Shown here piece by piece: positions 2,968-5,324 of a stretch of 5,324 bases of DNA (the first letter of the stretch is position 1; each line of letters opens with the position of its first letter). Below the pieces are notes generated by a model that ran no database searches, was not told the origin of the DNA, and saw only the letters and a list, made by a program, of their open reading frames with translations. Location: IMG/VR virus record IMGVR_UViG_3300029567_000110; one strand, written 5' to 3'. The DNA comes from a virus. Lineage: Duplodnaviria > Heunggongvirae > Uroviricota > Caudoviricetes. A program made the position numbers and the translations under genes.

Positions 2968-3090
2968 ATGCCTGAAAAATGGTACAGAACATTAAACACG
3001 CTGGTGGTTGCGAATACTGGTCTTTCAGCTTGCTGGCTTTTTCGACAAGAGTTATTGGTATGTCACGTTAACCAGAAAAGGAAAAAAGAC

Positions 3091-3288
3091 ATGCTAAAAC
3101 AGCAGGATATGACCGAAACCGCCAGAGTGGTGTTTAATGAATTAAGCGTCACCGAGCCGGCGACCGTCGGGGAAATTGCGCAGAATACTTACCTTTCACG
3201 TGAACGCTGCCAGTTAATACTGACCCAGCTTGTTATGGCGGGTCTGGCAGATTATCAGTTCGGTTGTTACAGACGCCTTCCGCAGTGA
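3091..3288 (+). CDS. Small winged-helix (wHTH) DNA-binding protein, 65 aa, immediately upstream of the methyltransferase
   Basis: ATG 3091 preceded by AAGGA (3078-3082) at 8 nt spacing. Translation MLKQQDMTETARVVFNELSVTEPATVGEIAQNTYLSRERCQLILTQLVMAGLADYQ has the spacing of small wHTH regulators (T-x-x-EIA ... L-x-x-L-x-x-AGL), loosely PapI/FaeA-like. The ORF track's longer form from ATG 2968 would start inside the terminator T-run and is unlikely. Confidence 0.5.
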   Translation: MLKQQDMTETARVVFNELSVTEPATVGEIAQNTYLSRERCQLILTQLVMAGLADYQFGCYRRLPQ

Positions 3289-3342
3289 AGGTTTTTTAAT
3301 TTGTGGTAATGGGCGGCTGGTGGGTGTTAGCGGCACCTGCCA

Positions 3343-3392
3343 GCCATCTGCTCATGCGTTGGGGTCACAAGCAAACCTCAGGCCCATCTGCT
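3343..3392 (+). repeat. Direct repeat CCATCTGCT x2 (3343-3351 and 3384-3392) in the wHTH-methyltransferase intergenic region; candidate operator
   Basis: Exact 9-bp direct repeat with 41-bp spacing (about four helical turns), between the wHTH stop (3288) and the methyltransferase start (3439). Flanks are also similar: CCATCTGCTcaTGCG versus CCATCTGCTtTGCG. Confidence 0.3.
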
Positions 3393-3438
3393 TTGCGCAA
3401 AAGCGGTATGAGCCTATCAGAGAAGTGCTTATTGATCT

Positions 3439-4485
3439 ATGGCTAATACTGTAAAAATATCCAGTTATGAGTTAATCAACGCTGATTGCCTGGAATTTAT
3501 CCAGACCTTACCGGAAAACTCTGTCGATCTGATAGTCACAGACCCGCCATACTTTAAAGTGAAGCCCGAGGGCTGGGATAACCAGTGGAAGGGCGACGAT
3601 GATTACCTGAAATGGCTGGATCAGTGTCTGGCGCAATTCTGGCGGGTACTGAAACCTGCCGGAAGTCTCTACCTGTTCTGTGGTCATCGCCTGGCATCTG
3701 ATATCGAAATCATGATGCGTCAGCGCTTTAATGTGCTGAACCACATTATCTGGGCGAAGCCGTCCGGACGCTGGAACGGATGCAACAAGGAAAGCCTGCG
3801 GGCGTATTTTCCGGCAACAGAACGCATTCTGTTTGCTGAACATTATCAGGGTCCATACCAGCCCAAAAATGACGGCTATGCGGCAAAGGGGCGCGAGCTA
3901 AAACAGCACGTCATGGCCCCGCTGATTTCTTACTTTCGTGATGCGCGTGAATCACTGGGAATAACGTCAAAACAGATAGCGGAAGCCACCGGAAAGAAAA
4001 ACATGGCTTCGCACTGGTTTGGTACCAGTCAGTGGCAGTTACCAAACGAGGGTGATTACAACAAATTGCAGGCGTTGTTTGCGCGTGTTGCGGCAGAAAA
4101 ACATCAGCGCGGGGAACTGGAAAAGCCACACCACCAGCTGGTCAGCACATACAGTGAACTGAACCGGCAATATGCCAGCCTGCTGGAAGAGTACAAATCC
4201 CTGCGGCGTTATTTTTCCGTATCGGCAGCCGTTCCTTATACGGATGTCTGGACGCATAAACCCGTGCAGTTTTATCCGGGCAAACATCCCTGTGAAAAAC
4301 CGGCGGATATGCTCCGGCAAATAATCAATGCCAGCAGTCGCCCTGGTGATTTGGTTGCTGATTTTTTTATGGGGTCTGGCTCAACAATAAAAGCGGCACT
4401 TTCACTGGGACGCCGTGCGATTGGCGTGGAACTGGAGGAAGAGAGATTTAATCAGACTGTAAGTGAAATAAAAAATAATCGTTAA
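3439..4485 (+). CDS. Beta-class DNA amino-methyltransferase (N6-adenine or N4-cytosine), no adjacent restriction endonuclease
   Basis: 348-aa ORF. Motif IV DPPY (LIVTDPPYF) near the N-terminus, HPCEKP, and AdoMet motif I FFMGSGST near the C-terminus. The IV-then-I order defines beta-class amino-methyltransferases. No endonuclease-like ORF on either side. Confidence 0.9.
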   Translation: MANTVKISSYELINADCLEFIQTLPENSVDLIVTDPPYFKVKPEGWDNQWKGDDDYLKWLDQCLAQFWRVLKPAGSLYLFCGHRLASDIEIMMRQRFNVLNHIIWAKPSGRWNGCNKESLRAYFPATERILFAEHYQGPYQPKNDGYAAKGRELKQHVMAPLISYFRDARESLGITSKQIAEATGKKNMASHWFGTSQWQLPNEGDYNKLQALFARVAAEKHQRGELEKPHHQLVSTYSELNRQYASLLEEYKSLRRYFSVSAAVPYTDVWTHKPVQFYPGKHPCEKPADMLRQIINASSRPGDLVADFFMGSGSTIKAALSLGRRAIGVELEEERFNQTVSEIKNNR

Positions 4486-4564
4486 ATACGGATAACATTA
4501 TTTCTGAAATTAAGAAATAATAGAAATATATACATATGTTTACGAATATTAACGTGAATTTCCA

Positions 4565-4592
4565 TTGAAAAGAGAACAGGCATCATTAGTAT
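4565..4592 (+). promoter_or_regulatory. Candidate sigma70 promoter (TTGAAA-N16-TAGTAT) in the AT-rich region after the methyltransferase
   Basis: TTGAAA (4565-4570), 16-nt spacer, TAGTAT (4587-4592), inside a stretch of about 25-30% GC (4486-4600). It would drive a + strand transcript into the ORF-poor 4600-5110 region. Confidence 0.3.
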
Positions 4593-4628
4593 TAATTTGA
4601 GTTCCGAGGGTATACCCCGAAGAACCAG

Positions 4629-4703
4629 TGCCGACTTAGTTCAGCAATCAGAGCAGGTGGCTTGTAACATCAGGTCACCAGTTCGATTTCTCAGTCGGTA
4701 CCG
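4629..4703 (+). other. tRNA-like fragment (possible decayed tRNA gene): acceptor-stem and D-arm-like, no canonical anticodon or T arm
   Basis: GCCGACT (4630-4636) pairs with AGTCGGT (4693-4699) over 7 bp including one G:U. It is followed by TA-GTTCAG...AGAGC-A, resembling the canonical tRNA U8-A9-GCTCAG...AGAGC D-arm, and 3' of the stem is A-CCG (near CCA). No 5-bp anticodon or T stem could be folded. A second T-arm-like hairpin GCGGG-TCGATT-CCCGC sits at 4707-4722. Confidence 0.2.
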
Positions 4704-5084
4704 TATGCGGGTCGATTCCCGCTGTTCCAGAAGTAACGAGATAGGTAGTTTTGGGCGCTGGCACATTAAATATGTGGGATGTTTCACCCTCTCTCCTTAC
4801 CGCATCCAGCCTGTAATGAAAGTTATTTGTTACGGTACCAGTGCCATCTTTTTACAATAGCGGAATGGTGCATTATTGGTAGATATTTTGTATTTCATGG
4901 CAGGGTCGGTGATGCATCATTCCGGTGTTGTAAATAACACCGCCGGGGTGTTCCTCAGTGCGGGGGTGGTTCAAGAGTCGGTTTAGCGGGAAGCCACAGT
5001 ATCCATACAGTATGGAGTACTTCGGGAGGCACCCGACGCCCTGGTTTTACTACAATAAAAATAACTTATCTTCTGCATTGACCA

Positions 5085-5109
5085 GCCGCCCCCACCGGGC
5101 GGTTTTTTT
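5085..5109 (+). terminator. Rho-independent terminator (+ strand)
   Basis: Stem CCGCCC (5086-5091) pairs with GGGCGG (5097-5102), loop CCACC, then T7 run (5103-5109). Confidence 0.7.
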
Positions 5110-5194
5110 ATTCTGAATTCCCCAAAAAAAGAAAACACGGACACTGATAATGCCCGTGTGGCAATGCCATGTAAGTCAGCGATGAATATGGCGC

Positions 5195-5228
5195 AAAAAA
5201 AAAGCGCGGCTGTCGGATTAAAGCCGCG
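5195..5228 (-). terminator. Candidate minus-strand intrinsic terminator (hairpin followed by a T-run on the - strand)
   Basis: On the + strand an A9 run (5195-5203) precedes a 7-bp stem CGCGGCT (5205-5211) / AGCCGCG (5222-5228) with a 10-nt loop. Read on the - strand this is hairpin then U-run. It would end a leftward transcript starting beyond the window edge. Confidence 0.4.
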
Positions 5229-5324
5229 GGACAAAGTCCGTGAAGAAGAATAAGCATCGGTCTCCTCCAGGAGACGAGTTGATATTACTAAGCTTTAAAA
5301 ATGGTTTAAATCCCCGTATTAACC

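Follow-up and report, generated by a model that had tools for sequence, protein, structure and literature searches.

The late-regulation region of a lambdoid prophage, represented here by a window of 5,324 nucleotides (nt; the whole stretch of DNA that was analysed, IMG/VR virus record IMGVR_UViG_3300029567_000110), contains between a DNA methylase moron and the lysis genes a stretch, positions 4486-5110, that is poor in open reading frames (ORFs). This stretch is probably one non-coding unit that consists of dead tRNA genes and an intact structured RNA related to STnc100, PasD and EcOnc27, for which we propose the role of a trans-acting small RNA (sRNA). An earlier note, based on the sequence alone, had considered a tRNA cluster in decay or, alternatively, a regulatory RNA of the phage, and each of these readings turns out to fit one part of the stretch: the former applies to 4630-4729, a dead Thr/Gly pair, but not to the rest, and the latter to the conserved, covarying, STnc100/PasD-related segment 4855-5109, but not to the tRNA part. 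The limits drawn in that note, from promoter to terminator, are those of a conserved transcription unit, with the following features.

4565-4592 (+): sigma70-type promoter, -35 TTGAAA (4565-4570), 16-nt spacer, -10 TAGTAT (4587-4592), 9 of 12 consensus positions
4601-4625 (+): 5' leader hairpin, GUUCCGAGGG-UAUA-CCCCGAAGAAC, just 5' of the tRNA; sequence read directly
4630-4703 (+): tRNA-Thr(UGU) pseudogene, from alignment to intact copies
4707-4729 (+): tRNA-Gly(UCC) stump, composed of GCGGG, TCGATTCCCGCT and GTTCCA; 23 of 75 nt left
4754-4853 (+): cloverleaf-like spacer X, with an 8-base-pair (bp) closing stem, three hairpin arms and a U-run at 4849-4853
4855-4930 (+): long hairpin H, 76 nt, 22 bp, conserved loop of ~26 nt
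4945-5042 (+): five-helix junction RNA, the STnc100-like core, 26 pairs, from covariation
4945-4950 / 5037-5042 (+): P1, closing helix of the junction
next in the junction: P2, hairpin CCUC-AGUGC-GGGG, followed by P3 and P4
5023-5035 (+): P5, hairpin CGGG-AGGCA-CCCG
5043-5083 (+): AU-rich linker, single-stranded, UUUUACUACAAUAAAAAUAACUUAUCUUCUGCAUUGACCA; read from the alignment
5084-5109 (+): intrinsic terminator, GC-rich stem-loop at 5084-5104 with a 5-nt loop, followed by T7 (U7 in the RNA)

The comparison set included about 100 related prophage loci (104 from a pattern scan of viral contigs), with 109 copies of the element. With megablast, 4486-5110 gave no match in the phage and E. coli collections; blastn, as the more sensitive mode, did find relatives, among them SerU-LTIIb (two copies) and vB_EcoS-683R6 (hereinafter 683R6), two annotated phages that share this layout. 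A contig scan with the 15-mer CGGGAGGCACCCGRC yielded at least 120 matches, mostly chance ones in high-GC genomes, with about 10 usable enterobacterial loci.

Evidence for a structured RNA comes from the pattern of substitutions in the predicted helices. Folded as RNA, 4736-5113 exceeds shuffled sequences in stability (z = -4.05), in agreement with the original description of the stretch as structured. Across 44 distinct sequences of hairpin H, pairing is seen in 97.6% of the cells and compensatory changes in 7 pairs, with none of the 500 shuffles performing as well and 28-60% pairing in slid controls; for the junction, 47 distinct sequences gave 98.6% paired cells and compensatory changes in 12 of the 26 pairs, again with 0 of 500 shuffles as good and with slid controls at ~50%. 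The search for covariation across homologous prophages, which the earlier note had suggested as a check, was thus positive for both elements, and this among aligned sequences with a mean identity per column of only 53%. Given the excess of G.U over A.C cells, 192:4 in hairpin H and 63:2 in the junction, the plus-strand RNA is the molecule that folds. The window core scores 99 bits on the covariance model of the family, R1, which indicates that every helix of this core is intact. Accordingly, the 3' RNA (~4855-5109, ~255 nt) is intact in the window, and we interpret 4855-5109, on comparative sequence evidence, as a conserved structured RNA that ends at the terminator. The small hairpin GGTGTT/AACACC (4924-4929/4936-4941), to which attention had been drawn previously, is present but, as a conserved structure, does no better than shuffles across 44 relatives; GGTGTT is the 3' end of the longer conserved hairpin 4855-4930. 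Hairpin H also accounts for spurious matches to miRNA-precursor families of Rfam; these matches, those to Trp and Leu leaders and other weak ones were rejected as artefacts of long hairpins and terminators.

No Rfam family exceeds its threshold in the stretch, and the best relevant match is STnc100 (RF02076), which aligns over its full length (model positions 1-206) with 4917-5113 (21.7 bits, E = 0.019 in a search of 765 nt with all families) and matches, also at full length, the same place in two phage relatives. On this model, true elements score 70-88 bits, PasD 38-41 bits and elements of the window type 21.7-22.9 bits. In 3.56 Mb, a loose P1/P2 motif occurs 87 times, and in 84 of these cases P5 follows within 200 nt; a bona fide STnc100 element (locus L198) is among them. 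RNAs of this kind are known to be expressed: 11 STnc100 copies are transcribed in strain EDL933, one of them confirmed by Northern blot (PMC5331693); the Hfq-bound sRNA EcOnc27, encoded just downstream of stx2B in Stx2 phages, partly overlaps one STnc100 copy (PMC12711010); and PasD1 and PasD2 of enteropathogenic E. coli (EPEC) are abundant sRNAs captured with Hfq by RIL-seq (PMC8550237).

Positions 4630-4729 represent, by alignment, the remains of a tRNA-Thr(UGU)/tRNA-Gly(UCC) pair that is intact in most homologous loci. SerU-LTIIb and 683R6 carry tRNA-Thr(UGU) or tRNA-Arg(UCU) followed by tRNA-Gly(UCC) in the corresponding place, and the tRNA genes 5' of the 109 element copies are Thr+Gly in 59 cases and Lys+Thr+Gly in 9. 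What had been described as a tRNA-like 5' fragment is indeed of tRNA origin, but is rather a full-length degenerate tRNA-Thr copy followed by the tRNA-Gly stump. All 76 positions of the intact tRNA-Thr(UGU) at the syntenic place can be aligned with the Thr copy, with about 14 substitutions and two 1-nt deletions; this copy keeps the acceptor stem and the T-loop, with GG changed to AT in the D-loop, the anticodon stem and the T-stem broken and CCA changed to CCG. In the Gly copy, ~49 nt are deleted between two GCGGGT repeats (in the 5' strand of the acceptor stem and in the T-stem) and ACCC is missing from the 3' acceptor strand; the ~49 nt appear to have been lost via deletion between these direct repeats. 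ARAGORN, one of the tools that the earlier note had proposed for this region, recognises no tRNA in the window even at 70% thresholds, and the Rfam tRNA model (RF00005) assigns to the Thr copy 19.1 bits, below the gathering threshold (GA) of 29, compared with 57.5-73.8 bits for intact relatives. In ETEC1732 (5732-5805), the tRNA-Thr has decayed independently next to an intact tRNA-Gly, which suggests that tRNA loss in this module is recurrent and ordinary.

Should the entire stretch then be considered decaying junk, that is, a dead tRNA operon with conservation that results from recent divergence or frequent recombination? Both tRNA genes of the window are dead, the Thr copy decayed separately in ETEC1732, E. 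coli ATCC 8739 lacks the junction core and the late regions of prophages are mosaic, all of which would fit. Nevertheless, this explanation appears very unlikely given that 22 and 26 base pairs are held by compensatory changes in columns of such low average identity, that the asymmetry between G.U and A.C is found in both structures, and that the 99-bit core, with all helices in place, adjoins a tRNA part that is structurally broken and only ~81% identical to the closest viral contigs (88% for the structured RNA). That the RNA stayed intact after the neighboring tRNA genes had died argues that the RNA itself is under selection.

The sigma70-like promoter that had been recognised at 4565-4592 is supported by its conservation. 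The match by itself is not above chance (3 sites found vs 1.7 expected); the -35/-10 pair is positionally conserved in divergent relatives, with 38 distinct upstream sequences that contain TTGAAA or TTGCGA, a spacer of 16-17 nt and TAATAT, TATTAT or TATCAT at a constant distance from the 5' end of the tRNA. The A/T-rich stretch upstream of the promoter holds additional -35-like boxes, TTTACG and TTAACG. In the relatives, the conserved initial transcribed segment pairs with the segment immediately 5' of the tRNA; the arms of this leader (GGUUCYGAGGGG ... CCCCUGAAGAACC) are the same, with a longer loop, and the hairpin at 4601-4625 of the window is predicted to fold as drawn. This promoter is distinct from the Q-dependent late promoter; both the window and 683R6 have a separate promoter/terminator unit directly 3' of Q (by eye). 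In the window, this post-Q unit (2861-2968) includes a late-promoter-like site (TTGCAA-17-TACATT) and a strong terminator (CCCGC..GCGGG-T7, ~2945-2967); it is likely the pR'/tR' unit and gives rise to the spurious Trp- and Leu-leader matches of Rfam. Two other candidate sites were rejected, both by eye: a promoter directly 5' of the core, where TAAATA (4931-4936; TAAAAG in most relatives) has no -35 box, and a sigma54 site in the loop of hairpin H, where the spacing is wrong (GG-N13-GC rather than GG-N10-GC). The TAAATA sequence resembles, again by eye, the -10 box of Salmonella STnc100 at equal spacing.

Spacer X, between the tRNA remnants and hairpin H, is closed by GGCGCUGG (4754-4761) paired with CCAGUGCC (4838-4845), and the window and four other divergent sequence types share one common fold of this segment (z = -3.6 to -5.1). 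The interpretation of spacer X as a third tRNA was rejected, being unsupported by ARAGORN and by the Rfam tRNA model; it could represent an element of processing or termination that resembles a tRNA, or else a very old tRNA relic. The two repeated motifs reported previously are both present, with coordinates that had been off by one base: ACCAGTGCC occurs at 4624 and 4837 (0.07 matches expected by chance) and CGGTACC at 4696 and 4833, and the second copy of each lies inside spacer X, that of ACCAGTGCC being contained in its closing stem.

The only ORFs of at least 60 amino acids (aa) in 4486-5110 are 4597-4860 (plus strand, TTG start, 87 aa) and 4983-5234 (minus strand, TTG start, 83 aa), and the judgement that both look non-coding is borne out by the comparison: searches of Pfam and PHROGs with these and with shorter ORFs gave no match, and no frame on either strand is conserved across relatives, with a median longest stop-free run of 53 aa on the plus strand and 49 aa on the minus strand (maximum possible 94). 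Genes for hypothetical proteins are annotated over the element or over PasD1 in ETEC1732 (6003-6401, plus strand), 683R6 (4361-4678, minus strand) and E2348/69 (L005:2801-3199, minus strand). That annotators did call ORFs over these homologous stretches (over PasD1 in the case of E2348/69), and that ribosome footprints were found on some STnc100 copies of EDL933 (PMC5331693), might be taken to mean that the stretch encodes a small protein, either a homologue of these hypothetical proteins or the product of the 83-aa minus-strand ORF. However, the annotated ORFs differ in strand and frame, no frame stays open across the relatives, single-base indels are common in the alignment, Pfam and PHROGs provide no matches, and the minus-strand ORF crosses two minus-strand terminators, so that a protein-coding function appears extremely improbable. 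The annotations of hypothetical proteins over the structured RNA are probably spurious.

At the 3' end of the unit, the clean terminator that had been placed at 5085-5109 is confirmed as a stem-loop (5084-5104) followed by T7. It is retained in nearly all relatives, with CCGCC/GGCGG replaced by CCACC/GGUGG in two of them. The RNA would end here, at what would also be the first barrier before the lysis genes. Immediately 5' of the terminator is UUGACC, which recurs in divergent relatives, and the linker 5043-5083 is a putative Hfq-binding and seed region; in PasD, the predicted seed likewise lies just 5' of the terminator (PMC8550237 supplement).

These features can be combined into a proposed scenario for a trans-acting RNA. 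The promoter at 4565-4592 would drive a single precursor that includes the leader, the tRNAs, spacer X, hairpin H, the junction, the linker and the terminator, the structured RNA thus being co-transcribed from the tRNA promoter. In the window, the Thr gene is disabled through point mutations and the two 1-nt deletions, and the Gly gene has lost ~49 nt through the deletion between direct repeats. Processing of the tRNA type, or by RNase E, at the U-rich spacer could free an RNA of ~255 nt (or ~165 nt), which would be stabilised by its structured 5' domain and by the terminator, and might act through Hfq-type base pairing in trans via the linker adjoining the terminator, by analogy with PasD. 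The terminator 5084-5109, together with further downstream terminators, would insulate the lysis genes from this constitutive unit, and Q-modified polymerase coming from the late promoter (~2861-2968) would read through these terminators.

The position of the structured RNA also allows for a different role, namely that of a cis element of the late operon leader, either a determinant of processing and stability or a sensor that tunes termination. The junction is compact, with almost no unpaired junction nucleotides, and is located ~40 nt before a terminator, on the path of late transcription from Q (2183-2878) to the holin, with several more terminators before the holin in the relatives. We consider this role unlikely given that no conserved anti-terminator pairing is seen, that the unit has its own conserved promoter, and that, for the related PasD and EcOnc27, the literature documents discrete, Hfq-bound sRNAs that have trans partners. 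A riboswitch-like anti-terminator, GGGGGUGG (4963-4970) with CCGCCCCC (5086-5093), was rejected by eye, being specific to the window and lost in relatives with different terminator loops. As a more specific version, the junction could be a domain that binds a protein or a ligand and exerts its effect in cis, either at the terminator next to it or in the processing of the late transcript. If this quite unlikely possibility were true, the junction would help to set the leak of transcription from the constitutive unit or from pR' into the lysis genes, and spacer X and hairpin H would belong, with it, to a multi-domain RNA machine on a tRNA operon.

Several observations weigh against the interpretation of the unit as the source of a trans-acting, STnc100-related sRNA. 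The scan found no sigma70 promoter between the tRNA remnants and the core (4600-5084), so that co-transcription is something that we infer, and some of the transcripts could end at the U-run that follows spacer X. The STnc100 score of 21.7 bits is far below the gathering threshold of 47 and derives mostly from the P5 hairpin and the closing helix; with the 5' half (the 5' strand of P1 plus P2) as a profile, nhmmer fails to find true STnc100 elements; and R1 gives no match to the PasD loci (L005/L006) at E <= 10. The model R1 does match true STnc100 loci but, given that these loci were preselected for the P5 15-mer, a motif that is also part of R1, the sample is biased and the matches were not counted as independent. 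Furthermore, the five-helix junction is more elaborate than a typical Hfq-dependent sRNA needs, which leaves room for another role, and the retention in ATCC 8739 of hairpin H, a linker and the terminator in the absence of the core implies that the core is dispensable in some versions of the unit.

The other features identified in the window, all 5' of the RNA stretch, are these.

768-1826: DUF968/HNH protein
1827-2192: RusA
2183-2878: antiterminator Q
3091-3288: small TrmB-like protein
3439-4485: N6/N4 DNA methylase (moron)

The left half of the window is ~94% identical to the 'PPompW' prophages of E. coli O157; in the methylase block, identity to phage phiP27 amounts to 92%. An IMG/VR contig (L071) that is 100% identical to 4461-5324 runs on into lysis genes and terminase-sized ORFs, which places the RNA stretch 3' of the last moron and ahead of the lysis genes; a holin gene is located 3' of the element in this contig and in relatives.

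Among 5,426 complete E. coli genomes, 230 (~4%) carry at least 80% of 4845-5113, with identity up to 88.8%; nearly all of these copies are unannotated, and many viral contigs also carry the element. In E. coli LY180 (W lineage; NC_022364, 1467377-1468283, including 1467650-1467917), the tRNAs of the unit are intact, and there is an unannotated gap of 750 nt. ATCC 8739 (L231:2500-2680) retains tRNAs, spacer, long hairpin and the same terminator, with an unrelated AU-rich linker in place of the junction core, which indicates that the 3' module is exchangeable. The module evolves through the swapping of parts, as seen in ETEC1732 and ATCC 8739. In phage SerU-LTIIb (KU052038), an LT-IIb toxin prophage, the tRNA pair and the structured RNA form a module that is duplicated (1122-2032 and 3028-3744); the two copies begin with tRNA-Arg(UCU) and tRNA-Thr(UGU), respectively, which differ in little beyond the anticodon, and the second copy lacks the block 3' of the terminator.

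This second conserved non-coding block extends in the window from 5110 to 5324 and continues to ~L071:1830. On its minus strand, there are terminator-like hairpins at 5159->5135, followed by a T-run, and at 5229->5204 (CCGCGGC..GCCGCGC), followed by T9. This arrangement suggests convergent minus-strand transcripts, as is the case for PasA in E2348/69; the block shows no sequence similarity to PasA. Relatives have more plus-strand terminators ahead of the holin gene. A 46-nt piece of the block (5194-5239) matches 5,348 of the 5,426 complete E. coli genomes; in E. coli DH10B (L003:1500-1680, compared with 5194-5324 of the window), the match lies ~290 nt 3' of the tRNA-Ser gene serU, and the similarity spans ~170 nt. 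Nearly all E. coli appear to have retained a remnant of this prophage segment beside the serU integration site.

STnc100/PasD-type RNAs are among the most frequently annotated sRNAs of enteric pathogens, located beside toxin and lysis genes. Because the subfamily described here falls below the Rfam threshold, its members are left unannotated or covered by spurious predictions of hypothetical proteins; the diversity that it adds could be used to rebuild the Rfam STnc100 model. Here, the family is seen in another expression context, at the 3' end of a tRNA operon and with an added 5' hairpin, and E. coli W/LY180, with intact tRNAs, together with ATCC 8739, a natural core-less variant, represent a tractable test system. 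The finding is of use in annotation and offers a way into the question of STnc100/PasD function, and does not amount to a new category of RNA.

In comparison with known systems, the closest parallel in location for the 5' part of the unit is provided by the tRNA clusters (ileZ-argN-argO) that lambdoid and Stx phages carry upstream of toxin and lysis genes. The parallel with these clusters that the earlier note had drawn holds with respect to position, the tRNA genes being 3' of Q and ahead of the lysis cassette in both cases, but not with respect to identity: relatives of the window have Thr(UGU) and Gly(UCC), sometimes with Lys(UUU) or Arg(UCU). Unlike the Stx clusters, the unit is preceded by a conserved promoter of its own and leads into a structured sRNA, and both tRNA copies of the window are pseudogenes. 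A regulatory RNA processed from a tRNA operon transcript and ending at the operon terminator is exemplified by 3'ETS-leuZ. The analogy is only functional, without a relation in sequence or structure to the window RNA, for which processing is a prediction.

The PasD RNAs (PasD1/PasD2, EcOnc13, of EPEC E2348/69) share with the window type a position between Q and the holin/lysozyme genes and a terminator; both PasD and STnc100 have been described between Q and holin, and PasD is regarded as a diverged relative of STnc100 on the basis of a structural relation that is undetectable by BLAST (bioRxiv 10.64898/2026.05.13.724894). Similarly, the window gives no blastn match to PasD1 or PasD2 of E2348/69 at E <= 1 with a word size of 7, but the closing helices covary (GCAUGGUG/CGCCAUGC against CCGGGGUG/CGCCCUGG), PasD has a related 3' hairpin, GGGAGGCGCC, and it too remains below the STnc100 threshold, at 38-41 bits. 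The differences are that PasD, 172-173 nt long, begins at the closing helix, is located 3' of protein-coding genes rather than tRNAs, and has a predicted seed, UGUGAG, that differs from the putative seed region of the window.

The relation to STnc100 itself (members at 70-88 bits) is one of architecture. Both types consist of a multi-hairpin domain closed by a single long-range helix, in which the 13-nt P5 hairpin CGGGAGGCACCCG abuts the 3' strand of the closing helix and the first hairpins may be related, with a loosely similar motif (CCYC..GYGCG..GRGG); an AU-rich tail and an intrinsic terminator follow, and the location is in the lambdoid late region, between Q or a moron and the lysis genes. 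Like the window type, STnc100 sometimes has tRNA genes on its 5' side: in Salmonella enterica subsp. diarizonae (L167:5491-5933), a true STnc100 element (70 bits) follows ~110 nt after a tRNA-Arg(CCU) and a second tRNA-like sequence. These two match the Rfam tRNA model with 54.4 and 41.6 bits, and only the first is called by ARAGORN, so the second may be another decaying tRNA. The internal helices of STnc100 and the window type, in contrast, cannot be aligned by sequence; the window type has an extra 76-nt 5' hairpin, which is lacking at true STnc100 loci, whereas the latter have promoter-like sites directly 5' of the closing helix (by eye), which are lacking in the window type; and the window type, unlike STnc100, seems to form the 3' portion of a tRNA operon. 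We therefore describe the element, which by the curated criterion is not a member of STnc100, as a divergent relative that, to judge from sequence comparison, would constitute a new subfamily of STnc100/PasD.

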